From an uncultured Chloroflexia bacterium (GTDB taxonomy: Bacteria > Chloroflexota > Anaerolineae > Anaerolineales > Villigracilaceae), in contig CAWGNR010000006.1 of assembly GCA_963823985.1 (NCBI GenBank), positions 88,618 to 128,617 on the forward strand: a stretch of DNA of 40,000 nt, written 5' to 3'. Position numbers and translations under genes: made by a program. The notes under the pieces were generated by a model, which ran no database searches, was not told where the DNA came from, and was given only the letters and a program-made list of their open reading frames with translations. Shown piece after piece: positions 498 to 24,388 of the stretch (positions are counted from its first letter, which is position 1; the number at the start of each line of letters is the position of its first letter).

Positions 498-2244
498 CTA
501 GAATGAAACAGGTGGGGCGTGGCGGATGGTATCCTATGGTGTAGCATGACGCATCACCGGGGATGCCATCCGGGGCAGGAGCATCTGGGTAGACCGACGC
601 CGCCCATGAGAGAGAAGTCGCAATTCTCCGCTCGTGTTGTTACTTGGTCGCCTGGTGGATTCTCGTCTGGGACATAGAGCCCGAATTGGTGTGTATCACT
701 CCATGCCCTGAAATCCACGCCCCACCTATCCCGCAGGGATTGCGGGACATTCGAACTAAGGAGAGTGTAGCATGAATGAAGAGTTGCTTGCAAGACTTTC
801 CCGCCGGTATCTGGCGCTGGACATTCACAAGCACTATAGTGTGGTGGCCGGAGTGAACTTTGAAGGCCAGGTGGTGCTAGAGCCAGTGCGGATCGAGCAC
901 GGGGATCTGGAAGTGTGGCAGGTGAAACACATTCAACCCACAGACTACGTGGTAATTGAATCAACGACCAATGCCTGGCATATCTACGACCTGCTGGAGC
1001 CGTTGGCGGAGAAAGTGCTGGTGGCCAACCCGATCAAGGTAAAGCAGATCGCCAGTGCACGGGTGAAAACCGACATCCGAGATACCCTGATCCTGGCGCG
1101 GCTGCTGGCAGCCAACATGGTCCCGGAGGTCTGGGTACCACCGGCACATGTGCGCAACCTGCGCTATCTGCTATCGCAGCGGCGCCATCTGGTAGGGATG
1201 CATACCGCGACGGTCAACCGGATGCACAGTGTGGCCCACCGTCACCATCTGAGCCATGCCAGGGGGAAACGCTTCAACGAGAAGAATACCAAATGGCAGC
1301 AGGATGATGAGCTATCCGACTCAGAGAAATTCCAGCTCGAGTTGGATATGAGCACCAAAAAACACCTGTTGAGCAGACCGAGAAGATCACCAAAAAATTG
1401 AGACGCATGAGCCACCAGAAACCGTGGGCGGAGAGCATGATGTACTTGATGCAGTTGCCTGGGTTCGGTGTGATAACTGGGATGACAGTGCTGGCAGCGA
1501 TCGGAGAGATCAGTCGCTTCGATAGCCCCAAGACACCTGGCAAGCTATTCAGGGTTGACGCCTGGGCTGGAGCAGAGCGGGGTGAAACTGCGCGGCAAGA
1601 AGATCACTAAGGAAGGGCGGAAGGATCTGCGCTGGGCGATGGTAGAAGTGGCGCAACGAGCTGTAAAGTCTGATCCGCTGTGGAAGTATCGTTTCAACGA
1701 ACTCTGCCGTCGGATGCACAAGAACCAGGCGATCGTGGTCGATCGCTCATCGTTTACTTGTACTGGTCTGGTATGTCTTGAGCCGCTGCCAACCCTACCG
1801 GCACTTTTCACACGAACGGATTGCCTACAAATACCTGACCTGGTCGTGGCAGCTAAGTGAGAAGGACCGGGATGGATTGACCCGCCAGCAATTCACACGC
1901 TACTACCTGATGCGGCTGGGGATCGGGCATGATCTGAAACAGATCGCACTCAACCCAAGATACAAGCGCAATCTGGCCAGTGAGGCAGAAGTTCTGGCAT
2001 TGAGACCGGAACTGAAGCGAACAGAGTAGACAATCCTGACATGTTCCGTTTGACCGGCAAACCCTAGCATGAAACTGGTGCGTAGGGCTGTGGAAGGCTG
2101 CCAGTAAACGGGAAATTCGATAAACTTCAGCTTTAAAATCACCCTAAAAAGAAAAGCCCCGATGCCTTTTTCAAGACCCGGAGCCTTCTTCACTCAGTTT
2201 TTGCTTCTACCCTTGACACTGCTGTTTATCGGTGTTTATCGGTG
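498..2244 (+). mobile_element. decayed IS110-family insertion sequence sitting in the GTT core of attC B1
   Basis: Left end cTAGAATG and right end TTGACActgctgtttatcgg parallel the ends of the IS110 copies at 3142 and 5748. The transposase frame is broken into four pieces. A 10-bp tandem duplication gtttatcggt lies at 2224-2243. Boundaries are +/-3 nt. Confidence 0.7.
772..2029 (+). pseudogene. IS110-family transposase with multiple frameshifts
   Basis: Track ORFs 772-1401, 1398-1610, 1555-1860 and 1778-2029 are together colinear with the 415-aa transposase at 3405-4652 but lie in different frames. Shared motifs are LALDIH, ESTTNAW, ARVKTD, PEVWVPP, LPGFG, ITKEGRKDLRWAMVE and NQAIV. Confidence 0.8.
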
Positions 2245-3090: not shown

Positions 3091-3141
3091 TTTTTGTTCC
3101 CTTTCTCAAACTCACATTTTGCCGCCCAACGGCTCGCGTTA

Positions 3142-3404
3142 TTAGAATGTCCTTGTTTGGGACGTGGACTCCGCGTATCCTTAAGGGTGATTGATCGCCG
3201 GGAACGCGGAAGGGACGAGAGCGTTTGGGTTGTCCGCCCGCCGGTATGGGAAGGATCTCATTGAGAGTGAGATCCAAGCCCGCTGCGTTAATTGGACACC
3301 CGGCGGAGACTAATCTGGGACCGGCAAAGTGAAGCCGAGAGCCCGCATCGGTACCTGCAGCTCAAAACCCGAAACCCACGTCCCAAACATAAGAGGAGTT
3401 TAGC
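3142..3404 (+). ncRNA. candidate IS110 bridge (guide) RNA region in the left end
   Basis: A long-range stem TGTTTGGGACGTGG 3154-3167 / CCACGTCCCAAACA 3376-3389 encloses about 210 nt with an internal hairpin at 3253-3275. Blocks match the attC target in antisense (3198-3208, 3237-3246) and in sense (3285-3290, 3299-3306). The RNA ends are unknown. Confidence 0.4.
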
Positions 3405-4652
3405 ATGAAAAAAGGACAAGATACAAGAGGCTACGAAAGGTACATGGCACTGGATATCCACCGGGAATACATCCTGGTGGGAGGGTGGAATGAGGAGAAG
3501 GAGTGGGTTCTCACGCCACGACGAGTAAGCATCGAGAAGTTTGGCGAGTGGGCGAAGAAGAATATTCGTCCGGGGGATATAGTGGTGCTGGAAACGACCA
3601 CGAATGTATGGGCGATCTACGACATTGTGGCGCCGTTGGCGAGCCGGGTCTTGGTGGCGAATGCTGCTGAAGTCTGGGAACTCGCAGGCGCGAGGGTCAA
3701 GACGGACAAGGAAGATATCAAGCGGTTGTTGAAGCTGCTCGTGGGAGGCATCGTGCCCGAAGTGTGGGTGCCGCCGATGGAGGTGAGGGAACTGCGCGCC
3801 TTCATTTCATATCGGAGCCGGTTGGTAAGCACGGCCACAATGATCCGCAATCGCCTGCAGAGCTTGCTGCACAAACACAACTTGCTGCTGCCAGAAGAAG
3901 GCATTCTGGACCAGGGCTGGTGGAATGTGCAATCTTCGATCAGTGGGTTGGAGAAGATGCAGATCCGTCAGGAACTGGCTCTGTTGCAGGAAGTCGAGAA
4001 ACTGAAGATAGCAGTCGATGAAGAGTTGGAGCGCCAAAGCACAGGTCCAATCTGGGGCAAACAAGCCTTGCAGATCATGCAGCTGCCAGGCATAGGGTTC
4101 GTTGTGGCAATGACAGTGCTTTCTGCCATTGGAGACATCTCGCGCTTTGAAAATGCAAAGCAGTTGGTAGGCTATGCAGGCATCGGTGCAGGCGTGCACG
4201 ACAGTGGCAAAACTCACAAGGAAAAGAAGATCACCAAGAAGGGACGCCGGGAATTACGCTGGGCAATGGTAGAAGCAGCTTGGCGGGCAGTGCGGAGTTC
4301 GCCCTTTTGGAAGGCAGAATACGAGAGACACCTGCAGCGCATGCGCAAACCGAACCAGGCGATTGTGGTGGTTGCCCGGAAGTTACTAATCGCCATCTGG
4401 CATGTCCTGAGTAAGGAAGAGACCGATATCCATGCAACTGAGGAAGACCTGGCGTACAAAATGCTATTGCTCTCTTGGAGCTTGAGCGAGGACGTTCGCC
4501 AGGGTTTGACCTACAAACAGTTCGCCAAATACGCGCTGATGAAATTGGGTGTCGAGACGGACATTACGCGCTTTGTACGCAAGAATGTTCCAAGACGATT
4601 GGCGCCGAGAGATGAAGTGTTGGCGCGCATCAAGGAGCTGGGCCTAGCCTGA
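3405..4652 (+). CDS. IS110-family transposase (DEDD RuvC-like N-domain plus C-terminal Ser domain)
   Basis: 415-aa ORF with MALDIH, LETTTNVW, GARVKTDKEDI, VPEVWVPP, LPGIGFVVAMTVLSAIGDISRF, HDSGKTHKEKKITKKGRRELRWAMVEAAW and NQAIVVVARKLL. A GAGGAG RBS-like sequence lies upstream. Confidence 0.9.
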   Translation: MKKGQDTRGYERYMALDIHREYILVGGWNEEKEWVLTPRRVSIEKFGEWAKKNIRPGDIVVLETTTNVWAIYDIVAPLASRVLVANAAEVWELAGARVKTDKEDIKRLLKLLVGGIVPEVWVPPMEVRELRAFISYRSRLVSTATMIRNRLQSLLHKHNLLLPEEGILDQGWWNVQSSISGLEKMQIRQELALLQEVEKLKIAVDEELERQSTGPIWGKQALQIMQLPGIGFVVAMTVLSAIGDISRFENAKQLVGYAGIGAGVHDSGKTHKEKKITKKGRRELRWAMVEAAWRAVRSSPFWKAEYERHLQRMRKPNQAIVVVARKLLIAIWHVLSKEETDIHATEEDLAYKMLLLSWSLSEDVRQGLTYKQFAKYALMKLGVETDITRFVRKNVPRRLAPRDEVLARIKELGLA

Positions 4653-4896
4653 AAAAAGCGAAAGAAAAACCGAATAGAGCGCGAACAACCCCGGCACGAA
4701 GACTTGGATTGAGTTTATCGAAATCCTTGGATTGGACTTATTGAGATCAAAGGCTGACGGGGGTGGCGAAGCGTTCCCTAATAATGAAAGAAACGAACCC
4801 GAATAATAAAAAACTGCCGTGAGAAAAGGATCTCAATCGGCAGATCTTGTTTTAGATGTTTGGTGAAACCCAATTAGAAGGAATTTATCTCAGCAC

Positions 4897-4918
4897 TTGA
4901 CAACTGCAGTAATCGGTA
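4897..4918 (+). promoter_or_regulatory. outward-facing -35 box (TTGACA 4897-4902) at the IS110 right end; it pairs with TAGAAT at 3143-3148 after end-joining
   Basis: Joining the RE to the LE through a single TA core gives TTGACA-actgcagtaatcggtat-TAGAAT, a 17-nt spacer. Copy 2 has the same arrangement (7484-7489 with 5749-5754). Confidence 0.55.
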
Positions 4919-5057
4919 CCGGCGGCTGGAGGGACGAGACTTGCCCACGAAACGGACAAAACCTAAAGCCATGAAAAAGGTCATTTTGGCGGTGCGAATC
5001 CAGCCGTCCGCGTGCACGCCGTGTTGGCACGCCTTTTGACCTTAAGATTTTTATGTT

Positions 5058-5399
5058 TTACGGCTGCTCATGAATTAAGGTGTTTAATTTCTTGATAACT
5101 TCATTGAATTGTTCGGACGGCAATTTACAACTAAATCTGGCTTTCCTTGCTTTCCAATCAAGGCTTTTTACTTGATCAGATAGGATTGCGCCTTGGATTT
5201 CTAAACCTTCAGGCATCAAAACTTCAAATGGATAACCTTTGACCTGGCTTGTTATGGGGCAAAGAAGGGCTAAACCAACTTTCCCGTTATAAGCCTTTGG
5301 AGACAAAACTAAGGCTGGTCTGTGTCCTGCCTGCTCATGTCCTGCTTGTGGATTGAATGCAATCCAAACAATGTCGCCACTTTCGGGAACATATGCCAT
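5058..5399 (-). CDS. mazF: MazF/PemK-type endoribonuclease toxin
   Basis: MAYVPESGDIVWIAFNPQAGHEQAGHRPALVLSPKAYNGKVGLALLCPITSQVKGYPFEV. The internal ATG at 5397-5399 is chosen as the start because it lies 4 nt after the mazE stop. The track ORF extends to 5441. Confidence 0.85.
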   Translation of the reverse strand: MAYVPESGDIVWIAFNPQAGHEQAGHRPALVLSPKAYNGKVGLALLCPITSQVKGYPFEVLMPEGLEIQGAILSDQVKSLDWKARKARFSCKLPSEQFNEVIKKLNTLIHEQP

Positions 5400-5403
5400 A
5401 GTT

Positions 5404-5646
5404 TCACCAAGCTTCATTCCCCAAGGATGTTCCGGTGTCAATTTCGTTGTGAAGATTATCTTTTGTGATCCCTGTTAACAATTCATCAAGCGTCCAACTT
5501 GGCGCTGGGACTGGCGTGATAACAATCCTGCCTTTGACGATACTGATTTCTACCAATGAATCGTTTTCCAGTTGGGCATCAACGGCAAAGGCTTTTGGTA
5601 TTCGCAGGGCAAGGCTGTTGCCCCATTTTTGAACTTTTGTGAGCAT
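5404..5646 (-). CDS. mazE: MazE/AbrB-SpoVT-type antitoxin
   Basis: 80-aa ORF MLTKVQKWGNSLALRIPKAFA..., immediately upstream of mazF. Confidence 0.85.
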   Translation of the reverse strand: MLTKVQKWGNSLALRIPKAFAVDAQLENDSLVEISIVKGRIVITPVPAPSWTLDELLTGITKDNLHNEIDTGTSLGNEAW

Positions 5647-5747: not shown

Positions 5748-7505
5748 TTAGAATGTCCTTGTTTGGGACGTGGACTCCGCGTATCCTTAAGGGTGATTGA
5801 TCGCCGGGAACGCGGAAGGGACGAGAGCGTTTGGGTTGTCCGCCCGCCGGTATGGGAAGGATCTCATTGAGAGTGAGATCCAAGCCCGCTGCGTTAATTG
5901 GACACCCGGCGGAGACTAATCTGGGACCGGCAAAGTGAAGCCGAGAGCCCGCATCGGTACCTGCAGCTCAAAACCCGAAACCCACGTCCCAAACATAAGA
6001 GGAGTTTAGCATGAAAAAAGGACAAGATACAAGAGGCTACGAAAGGTACATGGCCTTGATACCCACCGGGAATACATCCTGGTGGGAGGGTGGAATGAGG
6101 AGAAGGAGTGGGTTCTCACGCCACGACGAGTAAGCATCGAGAAGTTTGGCGAGTGGGCGAAGAAGAATATTCGTCCGGGGGATATAGTGGTGCTGGAAAC
6201 GACCACGAATGTATGGGCGATCTACGACATTGTGGCGCCGTTGGCGAGCCGGGTCTTGGTGGCGAATGCTGCTGAAGTCTGGGAACTCGCAGGCGCGAGG
6301 GTCAAGACGGACAAGGAAGATATCAAGCGGTTGTTGAAGCTGCTCGTGGGAGGCATCGTGCCCGAAGTGTGGGTGCCGCCGATGGAGGTGAGGGAACTGC
6401 GCGCCTTCATTTCATATCGGAGCCGGTTGGTAAGCACGGCCACAATGATCCGCAATCGCCTGCAGAGCTTGCTGCACAAACACAACTTGCTGCTGCCAGA
6501 AGAAGGCATTCTGGACCAGGGCTGGTGGAATGTGCAATCTTCGATCAGTGGGTTGGAGAAGATGCAGATCCGTCAGGAACTGGCTCTGTTGCAGGAAGTC
6601 GAGAAACTGAAGATAGCAGTCGATGAAGAGTTGGAGCGCCAAAGCACAGGTCCAATCTGGGGCAAACAAGCCTTGCAGATCATGCAGCTGCCAGGCATAG
6701 GGTTCGTTGTGGCAATGACAGTGCTTTCTGCCATTGGAGACATCTCGCGCTTTGAAAATGCAAAGCAGTTGGTAGGCTATGCAGGCATCGGTGCAGGCGT
6801 GCACGACAGTGGCAAAACTCACAAGGAAAAGAAGATCACCAAGAAGGGACGCCGGGAATTACGCTGGGCAATGGTAGAAGCAGCTTGGCGGGCAGTGCGG
6901 AGTTCGCCCTTTTGGAAGGCAGAATACGAGAGACACCTGCAGCGCATGCGCAAACCGAACCAGGCGATTGTGGTGGTTGCCCGGAAGTTACTAATCGCCA
7001 TCTGGCATGTCCTGAGTAAGGAAGAGACCGATATCCATGCAACTGAGGAAGACCTGGCGTACAAAATGCTATTGCTCTCTTGGAGCTTGAGCGAGGATGT
7101 TCGCCAGGGTTTGACCTACAAACAGTTCGCCAAATATGCGCTGATGAAGTTGGGTGTCGAGAAAGACATCACGCGCTTTGTGCGTAAGAATGTACCAAGG
7201 CGATTAGCGCCGAGAGATGAAGTGCTGGCGCGCATGAAGGAGCTCGGCTTAGCCTGAGAAGTAAGCCCGAAGAACAACTGAATAAAGAATGAACAACCCC
7301 GGCATGAAAACCTTGGATTGAGTTTATCGAAAACAAAGGGCTGACGGGGGTGGCGAAGCCTTCCCTATAAATGAAAAATACTGTCCCAAAAAACAAGAAG
7401 CTGCCGTGAGAGAAGGATCTCGATCGGCAGATTTTGATTTGGATGTCTTGTGAAACTGGATCAGAAAGATTTTATCTCAGCACTTGACAACTGCAGTAAT
7501 CGGTA
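5748..7505 (+). mobile_element. IS110-family insertion sequence, copy 2 (transposase start damaged)
   Basis: The left end 5748-6010 is identical by eye to 3142-3404. The coding region is near-identical. The 3' non-coding region 7258-7505 is clearly more diverged than the rest. Confidence 0.85.
6011..7257 (+). pseudogene. IS110-family transposase, N-terminal frameshift removing the first catalytic Asp motif
   Basis: Copy 1 has ATGGCACTGGATATCCACCGG (MALDIHR). Copy 2 has ATGGCCTTGATACCCACCGG at 6051-6070, which is 1 nt shorter and carries substitutions. The frame from ATG 6011 stops at about 6130. The remaining 391-aa ORF (6082-7257) lacks LDIH. Confidence 0.7.
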
Positions 7506-8328: not shown

Positions 8329-8456
8329 GGCTAACGGCTCGCGTTACCGGCGGCTGGAGGACGAGACTCACCCACGAAACGGCCAAACCCCAAGGCCACG
8401 AAAAAGCCCATTTTGGCGGTGAGAATCCAGCCGTCCGCGTGCACGCTGTGTTAGCC
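8329..8456 (-). repeat. attC-like site, subfamily A (A3), intact
   Basis: GGCTAACGGCTCGCGTTACCGGCGGCTGG...CCAGCCGTCCGCGTGCACGCTGTGTTAGCC. Confidence 0.8.
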
Positions 8457-10105: not shown

Positions 10106-10234
10106 TTCTAACGGCTCGCGTTACCGGCGGCTGGAGGGACGAGACTCGCTCCCAAAACGGACAAAACTCAAAGCCACGAATAATGCCAATTTGACGGTAC
10201 GAATCCAGCCGTCCGCGTGCACGCCGTGTTAGGC
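10106..10234 (-). repeat. attC-like site, subfamily A (A4), intact
   Basis: TTCTAACGGCTCGCGTTACCGGCGGCTGG...CCAGCCGTCCGCGTGCACGCCGTGTTAGGC. Confidence 0.8.
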
Positions 10235-11885: not shown

Positions 11886-13819
11886 GTAGGGTCAGGGAAT
11901 GGCGCCTGGGCATAAGCCTGGTTTCCATTCCCTGCCACCTCGAACCGGACGTGAGGTTTTCCCTCACGCGAAGCGGAGCTCTCCGACAACCTTCTTCCTG
12001 CGGCTTTCAAGGTTAGACTGCACATATTCCGGGTAGGTAGAAGAATTCTAAACCCTGTTGACGTAGTAAGGCTCTAAAGGTAAGTTCATCCCAGTGTCCA
12101 CGCGATCCCAGTTTTGAGCGCAGCCATTGTTCCAGACGATAGCGGACATAGCGGTCAAGTTGCTGGAATTTCAGGGTACTGTTCCCAAGCCGGAAGTAAT
12201 TCCGCCAACCGCGAATGATCCGATTGAGAAACTTTATTACTTCAGATAAGGGATTACTCAACCGCATTCTTTCAGTGATAAGGTGGATTTTACTGCGAAT
12301 GGCTTTCATGGCTTTAGGAGCGGGCCAAATGTAGGGCAGGAGCTTACCACTCTTTCTTGCTTTCTTCTTGTGGAAGTGAAAGCCGAGAAAATCGAAACCA
12401 TCTCGACCCATGTCCACAATTCGGGTTTTCGTGGGATGAAGTGTGAGTTTCAAAATATACATGATTTGCTTGACCTTTTGCAGGGCAGTTTCAGCCTCCC
12501 GTTTTGACCGACAGATGATGACGAAATCATCCGCATATCGAAACAGTTTGCCGAGAGAAGAATATCGTTCTGCCCAATACATATCCAGTACATGCAGGTA
12601 AATGTTAGCTAACAGGGGGCTGATAACACCGCCTTGAGGAGAACCTATTTGGGTAACGTTCTGTACACCATCTTCCATGACACCCGCTTTCAGCCATAGA
12701 CAAATGAGTTTCAGTACTCGCCGGTCACTAATCCGCCTCTTGAGCAGAGACAGGAGCATTGAATGGTCTATTGTGTCGAAGTAACTCTGTATATCGGCAT
12801 CAACCACCCACCAGCCAGCGATGAGAGACTTTTTCACTTCGGATACGGCCTGTTGTGCGCTCCGTTTGGGACGGAACCCATAGGAATTTTCTCGGAAGTT
12901 GGCTTCAAAGATCGGTTCGATCACAAGCTTACATGCCTGTTGCACCACGCGGTCACAAACCGCGGGAATTCCCAGCGGCCTTTGTTTGCCATCAGGCTTC
13001 GGGATGAAGACCCGTAACACTGGCTTCGGGCGATATGTACCTGCTTTCAGGTCTTGCGCAATCAGATAAAGAAACTGTTCTACTCCCTCCCGTTCCACAT
13101 CTTCGATGGAGACACCATCTACTCCGGCGCTGCCACCGTTCCTGCGGACTTCTTCCCAAGCCTGGCTCAGAATGTCAGGCCGGAATATGCGGTCATAGAG
13201 TGCATGGAACCGACGGTTCCTGTTCCTCTTGGCCGTCAGGTATAGTTTGCGCTGGAGTTCTCGTGATTTGTCTTGTGGTGGAATTGGCCTTGCGGCATGC
13301 ACCGTCACTTACTTCCTCGCTGAACCTGGTTGAAGTAGAGACCCTTTCCTCCTGACGAGTTCTGTTGTCTCGTCAATCAACGGTACTATGGTCTCCTCCG
13401 ACTTCTCATCTGGCTAAAATCTTAGGATTTCACCTTGCGGCTTATACCTGCGGTTACACTGTTTCTGTATCAGCGACCAGATGAGACCTCTCCTGTTCCA
13501 TCGCCTGCTTTCACAACATCCCATACTCCCTACACCGGAGAGTTCTTGACGGCTGCTTTTCAGGGTCTTCGCCGCTTCTGTTGCCTTCGCCATGCGTGAC
13601 AGGCTCGGCTCTCTCTTGCTCCCCTTGCGGGGCTAACATGTCGGTGCTGCAAGTTTCACTTTATGTTACGGACTGCTGTTTTGCTTCCCTTTCTCAAGGA
13701 GTTACAACGCTTCGGCACATCCGGTCACCCCGATGCACCGGTTGCCTGCTACCTGACGGCCTGACCCTTATCAGGACTGGACTTTCACCAGCTAGCAGAC
13801 GATGACTTTCAGGACACAC
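11886..13819 (-). mobile_element. group II intron (ORF-containing, no endonuclease domain evident)
   Basis: On the minus strand the 5' end reads GTGTGTCCTGAAAGTC. A domain V-like hairpin CGCGTGAGGGAAAACCTCACGTCCG is followed by a domain VI-like hairpin ending ...CCCTAC. The RT/maturase ORF lies inside. Ends are +/- a few nt. Confidence 0.75.
12013..13308 (-). CDS. group II intron reverse transcriptase/maturase
   Basis: 431-aa ORF with NGGSAGVDGVSIEDV, RPLGIP, SYGFRP, QGGVISPLLANIYL and FRYADDFVIICRS (YADD), plus a C-terminal maturase-like region. No HNH tail is evident. Confidence 0.9.
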   Translation of the reverse strand: MTVHAARPIPPQDKSRELQRKLYLTAKRNRNRRFHALYDRIFRPDILSQAWEEVRRNGGSAGVDGVSIEDVEREGVEQFLYLIAQDLKAGTYRPKPVLRVFIPKPDGKQRPLGIPAVCDRVVQQACKLVIEPIFEANFRENSYGFRPKRSAQQAVSEVKKSLIAGWWVVDADIQSYFDTIDHSMLLSLLKRRISDRRVLKLICLWLKAGVMEDGVQNVTQIGSPQGGVISPLLANIYLHVLDMYWAERYSSLGKLFRYADDFVIICRSKREAETALQKVKQIMYILKLTLHPTKTRIVDMGRDGFDFLGFHFHKKKARKSGKLLPYIWPAPKAMKAIRSKIHLITERMRLSNPLSEVIKFLNRIIRGWRNYFRLGNSTLKFQQLDRYVRYRLEQWLRSKLGSRGHWDELTFRALLRQQGLEFFYLPGICAV

Positions 13820-16996: not shown

Positions 16997-18968
16997 GTCG
17001 CAATGGGGTTGATTCCCCATATTATACCGGCGTGCGGCTTTCCCGCGCCGGGCGACCCCCGCTGCCTTGCCCTGAATGAGGGAACACGACCTTACTCTAA
17101 GTCAGTTGCCCATATAAAGACACCAAGCCCATGCGGGAAAGGTGTTTGATCAGCCAGCGCCGGTTGTCGCCGCGCGAGATACGTTTGAACTTCATAGAAC
17201 GCAGGCGAGCCCGGATCCAATTGTCGAGAAGCGTGAATTGATCTTTGACCGAGGCAAAATGTGTAGCAAAGTAACGGGCAAACCCAATGAGAACGCGGTT
17301 GAGCTTTTGAATAGCTTCCAGGCCGAAGTTATGGTGGCGAACGGTGAGGGAGCGCACCCGTTCCTTGAATTTCTCTATGGACTTTTGGCGGACAGAAACG
17401 CGACGGCGCGAGAGATGGAACCCCAGGAAGTCGAACCCTTCGACAAAGTTGGTGATCTTTGTTTTAGTGGGGGACAAGCTGAGGCCCAAGTCCTGCCGGA
17501 TGATATTGTCCACGAAAATCAGAGCTTGTTTGGCTTGGGCGTGGCTGCGGCACAAGACCACGAAATCGTCGGCGTAGCGCACGAAGCGGTAGCCAGCTTG
17601 TGTCAATCGTTGGTCGAGGACATCCAGGACGATGTTCGCCAGCAGGGGCGAAATCACACCGCCTTGGGGAGTGCCGGAAAGCGTAGGGAGGAAAGAACGA
17701 TCTTCCATTACGCCCGCCGAGAGAAACTCGCGGAGGATGCATAGGATATTACCGTCGGCAACCCGTTCAGCCACCTGGTTCAGGATAAGGATGTGGGGTA
17801 TATTATCGAAGAAGGCTTGGATGTCAGCATCCACGACCCATTTGTAACCAGCTCTATGGGCAGTAATAACAGCTTGAACTGCCTGATGAGCATTACGACC
17901 AGGGCGGAAACCAAACGAGCGCTCAGAGAAGTGTGGCTCGAAGATGGGTTCAAGGAGCGAACGCACAACTTCTTGAGCCACGCGGTCTCTGACAGTGGGG
18001 ATGCCCAACGGGCGTAGTTTGCCTTGCCCTTTGGGGATATAGGCACGGCGGAGGGGAGCGGCGTGGTAGGACCCCTTGTGTTTGAGGTCGAACATCAGGG
18101 CGGCAAGGTTGTCGTCCAGGTTGGCTTCAAACGAGCGGATGTCTACCTTGTCGACTCCGGCTGCTCCGCGATTGCGCTTAACGGCCTGGAAGGCACGGCG
18201 CATACGAGCCATGTTGATTTGTCCGGTCAGGGAATGGGATTTACGGCGTTGGTCGGGCAACAGACTCTCCTTGCAGAGAGGATGTGTTGTGAAGTAACAG
18301 AGGTTGAACCAGCGGGGCATTCTCACTTCGAGCGGCGTCTTTTCCGGTCAGCAGGATTACCCGCCTGCCCTGGCGGGCTAGGCCAGGGAAACAAGCCAGG
18401 CGGATGAGAAATGGCATCTCCATGCTGGGAAACATACCAGAACGAGAGAGTATCAGCCTTTTCTGGAAACTCCTGTTGCCTCACGGCAGACAGGTACAGC
18501 CCTTCGTTACTCTGAATGAGCAGTAACTACTATAGCTGTGCTGACTACCCCAAACTGACCGGCCAGCAGGAGTGACCGGACAGACCGCAGCATAGGGAGG
18601 TCACTTCGCACAGCTTACATCGTCCCGATGTCCTTCGGGATAGACCTCCGTTACCCAAGCCTCTGACTGACACTGTCCAGGGCAAGGGACTGCGTGGGTT
18701 CTCAGTTGGTTAGCACACTATCCTTTTATGACCGTGAAGACACCAAGCACGCTCCAGGTAGGACGACCCTAACTGCGTGTGGGAAGTCCTGGCAATTGTC
18801 GGTTACCAATGCTTCAGCCTTAGGCGCAGCCTGGCATACCTGGACCCGCCGAAACGGCCTGCCCTGAGCTTGTCGAAGGGTGCCTCCCCAGTCACCCTGT
18901 GGCTTGCCCACTTCGCGACTACTCCTTGCGGGGTAGCCCTGGGAACTATGTGGCCAGCAGTTCCGCAC
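16997..18968 (-). mobile_element. group II intron (second, different copy)
   Basis: On the minus strand the 5' end reads GTGCGGAACTGCTGGCC. A domain V-like hairpin CCGGCGCGGGAAAGCCGCACGCCGG has a 2-nt bulge. A domain VI-like hairpin ends ...TTGCGAC. The RT ORF lies inside. Ends are approximate. Confidence 0.7.
17097..18326 (-). CDS. group II intron reverse transcriptase/maturase
   Basis: 409-aa track ORF with NRGAAGVDKVDI, RPLGIP, SFGFRP, QGGVISPLLANIVL and VRYADDFVVLCRS. The true start is probably the internal MARMRRAF at 18212. Confidence 0.9.
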   Translation of the reverse strand: MRMPRWFNLCYFTTHPLCKESLLPDQRRKSHSLTGQINMARMRRAFQAVKRNRGAAGVDKVDIRSFEANLDDNLAALMFDLKHKGSYHAAPLRRAYIPKGQGKLRPLGIPTVRDRVAQEVVRSLLEPIFEPHFSERSFGFRPGRNAHQAVQAVITAHRAGYKWVVDADIQAFFDNIPHILILNQVAERVADGNILCILREFLSAGVMEDRSFLPTLSGTPQGGVISPLLANIVLDVLDQRLTQAGYRFVRYADDFVVLCRSHAQAKQALIFVDNIIRQDLGLSLSPTKTKITNFVEGFDFLGFHLSRRRVSVRQKSIEKFKERVRSLTVRHHNFGLEAIQKLNRVLIGFARYFATHFASVKDQFTLLDNWIRARLRSMKFKRISRGDNRRWLIKHLSRMGLVSLYGQLT

Positions 18969-20487: not shown

Positions 20488-22187
20488 GAGACTGTCGAAA
20501 AAGTGTTTTTTCAAGAGCAAACCCCGGCCGGGCGATGACTGGAAGCGCAGTTTCCTGGCCGGAAGGCAAGGAGACTGGGGATTTGATCCCCCATGGGGCT
20601 AGTGGAGCGCCCCAAAAGAGTGGATTTTGCCGATATTATGTACTATAGCGAATAACCTCCATTGTACATCCACCTTAGATTTGGAACGTAGCGTGAATTG
20701 ATTCATGCGTTTTTGGACGCAGATATTGGCAAAGACCGGTTCAACGATCCCCAGTCGCCTGCCATAAATGCGCTTGCCCTCATCACTATCGATCTTGGCT
20801 TTCATCGCATCGATCAGGTTGGGGGATTGCCTCTCAACTTGAATGGAAAGATTGCGGCGTACAGTATTTGCCTTCTTCAAGCAACGTGCCCTCAAAGGAC
20901 AGGCAGCGCAATCTTCAGGGCGAGCATGGTAGAGATCATAGGTGCGATGGCGGTTGACCTGGTTGCGAGCATAGCAGGTCAATTCCTTCCCTTGCGGACA
21001 ACGATACGCCTGTTTGTCTGGATCGAACGAGAAGTCAGAAACAGTGAAGAGACTCGGCTTGGCGTCTGGACGCTGCCGGCCGTGGATGCCGTCCTTGAAA
21101 CGTTCTTGCTCGGCAAAGCGTGGATCGCGTGTGCGGTATTGGATGTCGGGGATGTAAGCATCGATCTTTTCATCTTTGCAGATCTTCAAGCTGTTGAGCG
21201 AGTGATAGTTGGGATCGGCGGTCAATTGCTTGCCTTGAAAATAGGTTTCATCTTTTCCGATGGCGACGGCGTTTTTTTTTGCGCTATCCAACATGGGCTT
21301 AAGATTTTCGTGATCCTGGCTGGCGAAGGCTTCCGCAGCGAGAATGACCTGATGCTTGGAATCGACCAGCGCCTGCGCGTTGTAGCCCTGGATGACCCCA
21401 TGAGAAGAAGGCATCTTCACCGATTCGTTGTCGATCACATTGCTTTGGATCTCCTTACCTTCGCTGCCGCGCTTCGGTTCCCGATCCTTTAGAAATTCAT
21501 TGAGCCGCTCGACCTGCCGCTGGAAGCGTTGTTCGCGCTTCTTTTGACGTTCGATTTCAACTTGAGGATGTTGATCTGCCTGGGCATGTTCTTCCATCAC
21601 GCGCTGGAGTTTTTCCTGCAGCTTATCACGCTTGTGTTTGAGTTCATCGAGCGTGCCGCTCCATTCTTTGGAGACATTGGCAGAGAGTTTGACGCCATCG
21701 AGAGAAAAGTGCGTGCCGCCCAGCAAATCCAATTCATCGCAGACCGTGAGAATATCGCTGAAGATGGAAGAGATCTCTTTTTGCATGGAAGACACAAAGG
21801 CGGCAATCGTGCTGTGATCAGGAGCATACCCATAAGAGAGCGCAATGAAGAGGATGTTTTCGTGGCAGGCGCGTTCGATCTGGCGGGAACTGATCATGCC
21901 TTTGGCGTAGGCTAGCAGGATGACCTTGAGCAGGATCTTGGGATGGATGGCGGTTGCGCCGGTCTCGTCGTTGTTGTAGCGCGCATCAAAGACCGACAGG
22001 TCGATATGTTTCTCCACCAATTGGCTGATGGTGTGCTCTAGCGTACCTGGGACAAGTTGGTCCTGCAGGGAAATCGGGAGCATGACCAATTGATCTTCAT
22101 TGCATGGTTTGAATTTTGCCATAGGTTCCTCTATCTCATAGAACCCCCTAGCTTTGCACTAGATTCTCCCACTTTTTCGACAGGCTC
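20488..22187 (-). mobile_element. IS1182-family insertion sequence
   Basis: 18-bp terminal inverted repeats GAGACTGTCGAAAAAGTG (20488-20505) and CACTTTTTCGACAGGCTC (22170-22187), 17/18 matching. It is flanked by AAC/AAC and contains a single 507-aa transposase ORF. Confidence 0.8.
20599..22122 (-). CDS. IS1182-family DDE transposase
   Basis: 507-aa ORF. The N-terminus MAKFKPCNEDQLVMLPISLQDQLVPGTLEH...HPKILLKVILLAYAKGMISSRQIERACHENILFIAL matches the family pattern as I recall it. Confidence 0.8.
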   Translation of the reverse strand: MAKFKPCNEDQLVMLPISLQDQLVPGTLEHTISQLVEKHIDLSVFDARYNNDETGATAIHPKILLKVILLAYAKGMISSRQIERACHENILFIALSYGYAPDHSTIAAFVSSMQKEISSIFSDILTVCDELDLLGGTHFSLDGVKLSANVSKEWSGTLDELKHKRDKLQEKLQRVMEEHAQADQHPQVEIERQKKREQRFQRQVERLNEFLKDREPKRGSEGKEIQSNVIDNESVKMPSSHGVIQGYNAQALVDSKHQVILAAEAFASQDHENLKPMLDSAKKNAVAIGKDETYFQGKQLTADPNYHSLNSLKICKDEKIDAYIPDIQYRTRDPRFAEQERFKDGIHGRQRPDAKPSLFTVSDFSFDPDKQAYRCPQGKELTCYARNQVNRHRTYDLYHARPEDCAACPLRARCLKKANTVRRNLSIQVERQSPNLIDAMKAKIDSDEGKRIYGRRLGIVEPVFANICVQKRMNQFTLRSKSKVDVQWRLFAIVHNIGKIHSFGALH

Positions 22188-23198: not shown

Positions 23199-24388
23199 CT
23201 AGCGACCAGACAGTTTTAGAAATAGGCACAAAGAGAGACGCGAATTGAAAAAGCGTTGACAAGACATCTCTCGGTAAAACGCAAACCGATCTGAAAGATA
23301 CTCAGATCGCGACGATCTTTACGGTCCACGAGATGACGCAAACCTTGATGGATAGTGCGACCGCCAGATGAAACCAGCCAGACGTACAGAAAGGCTACTG
23401 CCAGGGTCAATCTCGATAGCCGCAAAAAGCTGTGAAGCATGGAACACTCCAGATCAAAACCATGTTTTTTCATATCACCGAACATTTCTTCAATCCACAT
23501 CCGGCGTTTATAAAAGCGGAGAGCGGTTTGCAAATCAGGCAAATTGGTCGCCAGGCACCAGGGTTCTTTTTCACCAGATTTCCAATGCACCAGCAAGTTA
23601 GCCGGATAAATGTGTGTCTGTGACAATTCTCTTTTTCCAAGCCATACGCTCTGACCGGCTTTTTGGACGTAACTTCCAAAGGGCACCCACTGGTTTTCAG
23701 TCTGTGACCAGACCAACGTATCTGATTTTTGGCGTAAAACGTAGTACCAATGCCATTTGTCCAGTTGTTTTAGCACTTTGACAGCTCCAAATTCGGTATC
23801 ACCGACCAGAAAAACGGCGGCTCCACGCGGAATGAGCGTTTTTACATAAGCAAGTAACGCGATCTGTTTGCTGCCTGTGCTATGTCCGCGCACATACTTG
23901 ACCCAGGTCCAGGCGATCGGGATGGCACGTTTGCGATAGGCCAGGCTGACCATCAATAATTGATGACCAAAACCAATTTTGGTACCATCTACGATCAGAT
24001 GGATTTCTCCAAGGCTCGCCAGCTGTTCTGCAAGCCATTGAAGAGCGACCGGCTTATACCAGTCACGAACACGAATGGCTGGATTGTCGAGAAAACGCTC
24101 AAACCGTTTCACCGTACTTTGCAACTTTGCTTTCCCAGGTATTTTTCCAGCGATCCGGCTCAGGTAAACCGAACGGCTCTGGTAGATCCCGTACATGAGC
24201 AAAACAAAATTCCGGACTTGGGTAACTCTTTGCTCTGGACGCAATTCACGAATTCGCTGAATCCATGTATGATACAGTTGGTTGGTCGGCATGGTTTTCT
24301 CCTGGCAATCTGTTTTCTCGCAAAAACAACTTTACCCGGTTTTGCCTGCCGATCAACCTTTTCATTTGCTAAAGTGTCTGGTCGCTAG
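23199..24388 (-). mobile_element. IS4-family insertion sequence
   Basis: Terminal inverted repeats CTAGCGACCAGACAGTTTTAG (23199-) and CTAAAGTGTCTGGTCGCTAG (-24388). It contains a single transposase ORF. I see no clear target duplication. Confidence 0.8.
23216..24292 (-). CDS. IS4-family DDE transposase
   Basis: 358-aa ORF with LIVDGT, FLVGDTEFG and YKRRMWIEEMFGDMK (the Y-2-R-3-E-6-K signature). Confidence 0.85.
   Translation of the reverse strand: MPTNQLYHTWIQRIRELRPEQRVTQVRNFVLLMYGIYQSRSVYLSRIAGKIPGKAKLQSTVKRFERFLDNPAIRVRDWYKPVALQWLAEQLASLGEIHLIVDGTKIGFGHQLLMVSLAYRKRAIPIAWTWVKYVRGHSTGSKQIALLAYVKTLIPRGAAVFLVGDTEFGAVKVLKQLDKWHWYYVLRQKSDTLVWSQTENQWVPFGSYVQKAGQSVWLGKRELSQTHIYPANLLVHWKSGEKEPWCLATNLPDLQTALRFYKRRMWIEEMFGDMKKHGFDLECSMLHSFLRLSRLTLAVAFLYVWLVSSGGRTIHQGLRHLVDRKDRRDLSIFQIGLRFTERCLVNAFSIRVSLCAYF

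Follow-up and report, generated by a model that had tools for sequence, protein, structure and literature searches.

The window analysed here, a 40,000-nucleotide stretch of a contig from an uncultured Chloroflexia bacterium (CAWGNR010000006.1), begins with an array of gene cassettes separated by attC repeats of ~130 nt each, and an insertion sequence (IS) of the IS110 family, which we call copy 1, lies inside one of these repeats. The non-coding left end of this element (3142–3404) is the subject of the analysis, as it had been predicted to encode an RNA that guides insertion into attC. The insertion point was read as GCGT-TA/CCGGCGG (slashes mark junctions) because the attC sequence is split by 1777 bp and TA stands at both junctions (3141/3142 and 4918/4919, placed by comparison with five intact attC sites). 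Five uninterrupted attC copies in the window read ..AACGGCTCGCGTTACCGGCGGCTGGAGGGACGAGAC.., which gives GCGTTACCGGCGG as the intact target. The donor junction of copy 1 is ..CAGTAATCGG-TA-TTAGAATG.. and its target ..GGCTCGCGT-TA-CCGGCGGCTGG.., and the same boundaries recur in more than 60 related metagenome loci.

The transposase of copy 1 matches Pfam PF01548 and PF02371 as well as NCBIfam NF033542 (189.7 bits, cutoff 140), and its catalytic D/E/D/D and SG columns are conserved in the alignment. A TAGAAT hexamer in the left end and a TTGACA hexamer in the right end, both kept at the ends of relatives, match the promoter consensus, and the spacing TTGACA-17-TAGAAT arises only when the element ends are joined in a circle. 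From these matches we infer that the two hexamers are the halves of a junction promoter.

Over 3500 homologues of the recombinase were found, the closest (86–91% identical) coming from soil and sediment metagenomes and from Anaerolineales. Two sets of loci were compared with the window: close relatives, comprising 80 metagenome loci with 76–90% identity, and distant relatives, comprising 80 genome loci, mostly from Chloroflexota, with 43–79% identity to a distant representative, found by a genome scan built on an alignment of four proteins.

Table 1 Features of the window, with positions counted from its first nucleotide.
Feature	Positions	Strand	Remarks
IS110-family element, copy 1	3142–4918	+	1777 bp, TTAGAATG...AATCGGTA (AATCGG+TA end), inside attC; from junction analysis
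Left copy of core dinucleotide TA	3140–3141	+	Target-derived; left target GCGT at 3136–3139
Candidate -10 hexamer TAGAAT	3143–3148	+	Left end
Bracket stem, 5' arm	3154–3167	+	14 bp, perfect; begins about the predicted transcription start
Conserved 5' hairpin	3168–3211	+	Minimum free energy (MFE) fold; 3' arm holds CGGGAACGC (3199–3207)
Predicted bridge-RNA core	3212–3372	+	Junction helix, target-binding loop, donor-binding loop; model R1 122 bits, E 2e-33
Target loop, 5' guide CCCGCCGGTA	3237–3246	+	Complementary to top strand of core + right target (TA+CCGGCGG); guide proper CCGCCGGTA 3238–3246
Target-loop inner stem	3247–3282	+	TGGG/CCCG plus variable hairpin 3253–3275; GC->AU compensatory changes, hairpin fully covarying
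Target loop, 3' guide GCGTTA	3285–3290	+	Left target GCGT + core TA; AT follows (to 3292)
Donor loop, 5' guide GAGACTAATC	3306–3315	+	CTAAT (3311–3315) complementary to core-A + TTAG, left-end start
Donor loop, 3' guide CATCGGTACC	3346–3355	+	Right-end tip ATCGG + core TA + CC (= RT+1,+2); ATCGGTA 3349–3355
Bracket stem, 3' arm	3376–3389	+	Directly before the ribosome-binding site
Ribosome-binding site AAGAGGAG	3391–3398		Directly after the bracket-stem 3' arm
DEDD/Ser transposase (recombinase), IS110 family	3405–4652	+	415 aa
Right end of copy 1	4653–4918	+	266 nt, A+T-rich, variable among relatives; ends AATCGG + core TA
Candidate -35 hexamer TTGACA	4897–4902	+	Right end
Copy 2 of the same IS	5748–7505	+	Same position in next attC; bridge-RNA core 5818–5978 identical to copy 1
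Decayed relative	498–~2234	+	Opposite attC end, CTGT-TA/; transposase 38–43% identical, multiple frameshifts
Bridge-RNA core of decayed relative	572–710		Guides TGTTGTTAC and GCCGCCCA
Unoccupied perfect target GCGTTACCGGCGG	8341–8353	+	
attC cassette array	first 22 kb, end near 22.3 kb		Genes on minus strand
MazF/PemK-like toxin gene	5058–5646	-	Pfam PF02452; cassette between the IS copies
Reverse transcriptase/maturase open reading frame (ORF)	12013–13308	-	Within the array
Group II intron domain D1–D4	13661–13794	-	Rfam RF02003, 87 bits; adjoins the preceding ORF
Second reverse transcriptase/maturase ORF	17097–18326	-	Within the array
DDE transposase gene	20599–22122	-	Beside array end
DDE transposase gene	23216–24292	-	Beside array end

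Fold of the left-end RNA

The left end of copy 1 folds more stably than its shuffles (z = -5.06), as does that of the decayed relative found upstream (z = -5.25). The 14-bp long-range stem that was said to bracket the region pairs perfectly, and a bracket stem is present in most related lineages, with sequences that differ on both arms from one lineage to another. The bracket stem claimed for the decayed relative is also real, although its coordinates had been given one position off (it lies at 509–522 and 715–727).

Folding the region with related left ends, as the original prediction had proposed, gave a conserved and covarying secondary structure. An alignment of 27 diverse cores yielded a common plan, GGGry..GAGCrTy-TGGG(N2)-stem-CG-[~10 variable nt]-TGGGA-hairpin-AGCCCG-[~9 variable nt]-TTGG-stem-CCCG-nyGG-[variable]-TGGGA-hairpin-AGCCCG-[N-ATCGG-T-N..]-...-(N2)CCC, which is preceded by the 5' hairpin and enclosed by the bracket stem, and both the structure and the covariance model R1 were derived from this alignment. 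The structure tested consisted of a junction helix, an outer and an inner stem for each loop, and one hairpin. It left 92.8% of the cells paired (80.2% in shuffles), and its covariation score was 0.377, a level reached by none of 500 shuffles (0.160), while slid registers gave 0.04–0.07. Double changes affected both sides in 19 of the 30 pairs.

Model R1 matched all three IS110-type elements of the window, 75 of the 80 genome loci and more than 70 of the 80 metagenome loci. The match almost always directly preceded the recombinase gene, and many of the matched sequences were absent from the seed alignment.

Some pairings were discarded along the way. An RNAalifold consensus on the alignment A3 was only partly sensible (it paired CCCG 93–96 with TGGG 112–115 and GCC with GGT), and its pairs were replaced by analogy between the two loop modules before the result was tested. 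The MFE pairing of GGGTTGTCC with GGACACCC was dropped in favor of GGGTT/AACCC and GTCCG/TGGAC, because columns 21–166 and 22–165 covary strongly. A pseudoknot between GAGC (3219–3222) and GCTC (3360–3363) is compatible with the alignment (~85% paired, some covariation), but its formation would conflict with the donor loop's outer stem.

Three genome loci (L144, L147 and L121) carry an extra hairpin of ~25–30 nt (CCCAGCACCTGCGGTACTGGGCAGGTGT) directly after the GCGTTA guide, which lengthens the left end to 286–314 nt and leaves the flanking helices undisturbed.

Guide segments and the DNA they match

Each of the two loops presents two variable segments, which in copy 1 match the target and the donor (Table 1). 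In the target loop, CCCGCCGGTA (reverse complement TACCGGCGGG) fits TACCGGCGGC at 9 of 10 positions. The antisense match of its 9-mer CCGCCGGTA is by itself unremarkable (p ~0.12), and what makes it significant is that it covaries with the flank. For the comparison across relatives, guide segments were taken from the model alignments and the element ends were set by guide-independent motifs (the -10 hexamer and TTGACN..ATCGG). The permutation tests covered ~50–70 distinct lineages, with one sequence per distinct guide.

All four segments followed the DNA that they are expected to read. The target 3' segment matched the left flank at a mean of 7.5 of 10 nt (5.3 when permuted), and the reverse complement of the target 5' segment matched the core and right flank at 5.9 of 10 nt (3.8 when permuted), values as high being reached in 0 of 20,000 permutations in either case. 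By mean local-alignment score, the donor 3' segment tracked the right-end tip (6.67 vs 5.28 permuted, 0 of 3000) and the reverse complement of the donor 5' segment tracked the core and left-end start (4.67 vs 3.90, 0 of 3000). A control pairing of the target 3' guide with the right-end tip gave a null result. The donor 3' guide reads ATCGG, ATTGG or ATCTG, changing with the right-end tip.

Of the 60-odd close relatives with a readable left junction, nearly all insert at ..AACGGnnnGCGT-TA/../TA-C[CT][GCT]GC in the same orientation. Their left flank is nearly always ..YYAACGGnnnGCGT-TA, with GCATTA, GCGGTA, GTGTTA and ACGTTA as minor variants. While the left target GCGTTA is thus nearly constant, the right target varies (CCGGCGG, CCCGC, CTGGCG, CCTGCG), and when all left-end columns were compared with all flank positions, mutual information was highest between 3242 and the third base of the right target (RT+3), at 81% complementarity, exactly as predicted by the pairing of 3238–3246 with TA and the right target. 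Over RT+1 to RT+8, the real pairing beat 9999 of 10,000 permutations.

The distant relatives include many lineages with unrelated targets, and guides and flanks agree in these as well. In locus L154, the left flank equals the guide TCATAGTGTT, and the right flank TATCTTAC.. stands against the guide TATCTTAC. Agreement extends over TCCTTGT and TGCCATAT in L102, over AAATTATT and TATAGCAC in L107, and over 10 of 10 positions in L155 and L157.

The two bases that follow the core in each 3' guide tend to fit the non-cognate partner. In the target loop, the base after the core equals the first base of the left end in most relatives, and in the donor loop the 2-nt extension tracks RT+1,+2 (0.955 vs 0.545, 0 of 20,000 permutations). 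These extensions resemble the handshake arrangement of IS621.

These comparisons establish the structure with its covariation, the assignment of the four guides, and the fixed site and orientation of insertion. Because a conserved covarying structure is found together with model matches upstream of ~150 transposase genes and with covariation between guides and flanks, the left end of copy 1 very probably encodes a bridge RNA of ~235 nt (~3155–3389) programmed for attC. The original prediction of an IS110-type bispecific guide RNA for an attC site is borne out in this respect, and all the strings that it quoted occur in the window, at the positions given or within 1 nt of them. Its guide map was half right: CCCGCCGGTA and GCGTTA are guides that covary with the targets of homologues, whereas CCGGGAACGCG and CCCGGCGG are not, and the donor-binding loop had been missed.

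Proposed mechanism and alternative explanations

By analogy with IS621, ISEc11 and ISEc21, the element would excise as a circle, the joined ends of which would create the promoter TTGACA-17-TAGAAT and allow transcription of the RNA and the transposase gene from a start near 3155. The RNA would then fold into the bracket stem, the 5' hairpin and a junction helix with two internal-loop modules that resemble each other, the first reading the attC target and the second reading the circle junction, that is, the right-end tip ATCGG+TA and the left-end start. The recombinase might assemble on both modules and, as a DEDD/Ser enzyme, exchange strands at the TA core, so that the element would always land at the same point and in the same orientation within the R'-proximal arm of attC.

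Several points weigh against this interpretation. No bridge-RNA family of Rfam 15 matched the region, either at the gathering threshold or at E values up to 10. The sequences used in the permutation tests are phylogenetically related and were collapsed per guide rather than corrected by a tree, and metagenome contigs of repeated elements may be chimeric. Pairing of the donor 5' guide is partial and discontinuous, with 5 contiguous nt in the copy of the window. Finally, the stepwise mechanism is an extrapolation, since the guide order differs from that of the only systems with solved structures.

The alternative that survives best, though we hold it to be rather unlikely, is that the RNA does guide recombination but reads folded single-stranded attC, or needs the attC hairpin as a second structural gate. 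In the folded single-stranded form of attC, the target straddles the boundary between an internal loop and the main stem, with the core lying at this boundary, nearly all natural insertions lie in attC though only ~13 bp are specified, and ISPpu10 offers a precedent. However, the reading of opposite strands by the two guides implies duplex or melted duplex DNA as in IS621, and the restriction to attC may only reflect where the 13-mer occurs. Locus L009 also speaks against a need for folded attC: its left junction is normal (AAAGCGTTA/), but the right flank, CCAAACCAAACG, does not resemble attC and agrees with the guide only at CC. This locus may represent an off-target insertion or a later deletion.

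A second alternative, which we consider improbable, starts from the resemblance of further blocks of the left end to attC: the region would mirror or have captured attC, the blocks at 3198–3236 and 3299–3306 extending the recognition of folded attC or mimicking it, as had been suggested. The block AGGGACGAGA (3211–3220) is, as claimed, an exact 10-mer of attC (4930–4939), with p ~0.03 in dinucleotide shuffles, and relatives L002 and L003 have GGGATGAGA both in the left end and in their own attC. CCGGGAACGCG (3198–3208) does overlap an antisense match to the 13-bp target (3195–3207 on the minus strand, 11 of 13), which is nominally rare (~0.006 expected in 263 nt, scaled). Hairpin targets are moreover known to potentiate another IS110 element, ISPpu10. 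The match claimed between GCGTTTGGGTTGTCCG (3221–3236) and the reverse complement of the attC center, on the other hand, needs a 2-nt gap plus mismatches.

Raw similarity cannot decide which of these blocks matter, but comparison with relatives can. The blocks belong to motifs that occur family-wide, also in lineages with unrelated targets (CGGGRAYGC, GGGry..GAGCrTy-TGGG-stem and CCCGnyGG). The conserved 5' hairpin, as seen in an MFE fold, has CCGGGAACGCG as its 3' arm, and the motif of this arm, in the form [CG]GGGRAYGC, occurs not only in 61 of 72 loci with the GCGTTA target but also in 42 of 72 loci with other targets. The sense repeat that was said to pair up with GCGTTA, CCCGGCGG (3299–3306), is present but corresponds to the conserved CCCGnyGG linker between the two loops. 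The original prediction had held that the same blocks in relatives with different targets would mean that the matches are not guides, and both CCGGGAACGCG and CCCGGCGG are indeed kept in relatives targeting AATTA/T, CTCGTTGT/, AGGATGT/, AGCTTGTT/ or CATAGTGT/. In the close relatives, mutual information showed no covariation of block 3198–3208 with the flank.

AGGGACGAGA and GCGTTTGGGTTGTCCG together are the clade version of GGGry..GAGCrTy-TGGG-stem, with GGGACGAGA, GGGATGTGA and GGGGTG-GA as clade variants. Both the junction helix and the outer stem of the target loop are built from the TGGG-stem part, and both covary; the GGG/GAGC part is conserved, and the pairing of GAGC with the 3' GCTC is weaker. 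Within the clade, this block did not significantly track attC variation (permutation p = 0.13), and the attC-like blocks in general are either invariant there or change independently of the adjoining attC. As the blocks are family-wide and do not track attC, mimicry or capture of attC is not supported. The 11-of-13 match is treated as a coincidence because its motif is family-wide, though it is not fully explained, and the attC-like blocks may at most have a clade-specific auxiliary role. Raw similarity between IS ends and targets can thus mislead: of the six blocks, two proved to be guides, the other four being conserved scaffold.

It is highly improbable that the left end is only a structured 5' untranslated region acting on transposase translation or stability, with the protein picking the target and the flank resemblance being incidental: the bracket stem does end directly before the ribosome-binding site, so that the fold could influence translation, but the four loop segments change with the left flank, the right flank, the left-end start and the right-end tip across dozens of lineages whereas the controls do not, and bridge RNAs and seekRNAs are defined by just this pattern, in which each strand has its own segment and the segments overlap at the core.

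Other elements of the array and comparison with known systems

Copy 2 has a left end identical to that of copy 1 and a right end that is only ~87% identical. Its transposase is frameshifted after residue 16 (MAL/IPTG..) and has lost the first catalytic Asp. Copy 2 is non-autonomous, but it could still supply or use the RNA in trans. In the decayed relative, the donor 3' guide reads ATTGG against a right end with ATCGG, consistent with decay, and the right terminus is tandemly duplicated (TGTTTATCGG TGTTTATCGG, 2223–2244). In the lineage that targets GTGTTA/GGC (L140, L134, L156 and the window at 2233–2234), the left junction of several copies has TA whereas the right one has TG, with ..CCCA in the guide. 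The core may therefore not be the same at both junctions, which is what a mismatch between donor and target cores at the second base would produce (attC variants GTTAGGC and GTTGGGC).

In four metagenome contigs, a second covariance-model match lies downstream of the first IS (L031:1808–1964, L048:2269–2425, L028:3163–3307 and L046:3108–3237). These matches belong to another lineage, the guide CTCGGGTGTT of which fits its own left flank ..GTCGGGTGT/T, and distinct IS lineages with bridge RNAs therefore sit close together there.

Besides the unoccupied target listed in Table 1, perfect copies of the 13-bp target start at 10118, 10979, 16223 and 19820, and five more copies have one mismatch. A search for an integron integrase gene in the 40-kb window found none. 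The array could be a cluster of attC sites lacking an integrase, or such a gene could be located beyond the window. Two DDE transposase genes stand beside the array end. Between the two IS copies lies a cassette for a MazF/PemK-like toxin, and the small ORF upstream, which overlaps the toxin gene, is probably the antitoxin. The array also holds two reverse transcriptase/maturase ORFs, one adjoined by a group II intron domain. These introns are possibly of the group IIC-attC type and would then be a second class of attC-homing element at this locus.

The analysis provides a base-resolved guide map for an uncharacterised and very abundant IS110 subfamily, with dozens of naturally reprogrammed target/donor pairs as raw material for engineering bridge recombinases. 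It also indicates that environmental cassette arrays, here one in a window where no integrase gene was found, are invaded by RNA-guided IS elements aimed at both attC ends, and insertions of this kind would split the attC site.

In the IS621 and ISCro4 systems, the loops of the bridge RNA pair with both strands of the target and of the donor and overlap in a 2-nt core (Durrant 2024, Hiraizumi 2024), and diverse bridge RNAs were predicted in 85.7% of the IS110 elements of ISfinder (Durrant et al.). The present element resembles these two in having the RNA in the left end, upstream of a DEDD/Ser recombinase gene, and two internal loops, one for the target and one for the donor, each of which addresses both strands by a long and a short guide that overlap in a 2-nt core, with handshake-like extensions. 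The promoter that its candidate hexamers would form across the joined ends, by consensus match, would be a further resemblance. It differs in its RNA of ~235 nt with a 14-bp bracket stem and a junction helix, and in its recombinase, which has 415 aa instead of ~326 and is only distantly related (E 1e-5 to 1e-7, C-terminal domain). The core is CT in IS621 and TA here. In IS621, as we checked on an Escherichia coli copy, the loop has the sense left target and core on its 5' side (ATCGGGCCT), while its 3' side (GTAG) is the reverse complement of core and right target, and this order is reversed here.

The seekRNA of ISEc21 (Siddiquee 2024) likewise comes from a non-coding region upstream of the transposase gene, in an element without subterminal inverted repeats, and its short matches to both target strands overlap at the insertion point. 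However, its bottom-strand match lies 5' of the top-strand match, while the top-strand complement is 5' here. The latter order is that of IS1111-type seekRNAs. The IS1111 group in turn has subterminal inverted repeats (7–17 bp), whereas a search for exact inverted repeats of at least 6 nt between the first and last 70 nt of copy 1 found none, and, unlike in that group, the RNA precedes the transposase gene, both in the window and at nearly every related locus.

An IS1111-type guide order combined with an upstream RNA and no subterminal inverted repeats is an unusual combination. Upstream bridge RNAs can thus have a polarity so far tied to IS1111-type seekRNAs, which bears on the divergence of IS110 and IS1111 and on which strand is exchanged first. 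We tentatively suggest, as a possibility that falls short of being probable, that this Chloroflexota-dominated subfamily (>3500 homologues, ~400–430 aa) is a third architectural class with a left-end RNA, a bracket stem and IS1111-type polarity, including specialists for attC ends. With this polarity, the orientation of insertion with respect to the RNA-DNA synapse would be the opposite of that in IS621. Such a class would fit a programmable donor site that moved across the RNA gene during the IS110/IS1111 split. Several lineages would then have specialised independently on the two attC ends, and they could shape folded attC or be gated by it and be major remodellers of chromosomal cassette arrays.

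Other elements are also drawn to attC or to hairpins. ISPpu10, which targets repetitive extragenic palindromic (REP) hairpins (bioRxiv 2026), has, like the present element, its natural target in hairpin-capable DNA and guides that pair with a stem arm, but it lacks the 5' stem-loop that is kept in the present family. Group IIC-attC introns are another class of mobile element homing to attC, and the present array holds group II intron parts, although as ribozyme and reverse-transcriptase retroelements they are mechanistically unrelated. The IS1111-attC group (ISKpn4, ISPst6, ISPa25) also targets one attC end at a fixed position, and ISKpn4 uses the site GAA/CGAATTGTTAG, its top strand running in cassette orientation. 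In contrast to that group, whose transposases have 330–350 aa, the present element combines a 415-aa enzyme with a different position in attC, 11–13 nt from the R' box, and with the opposite orientation, its transposase gene lying antisense to the cassettes.

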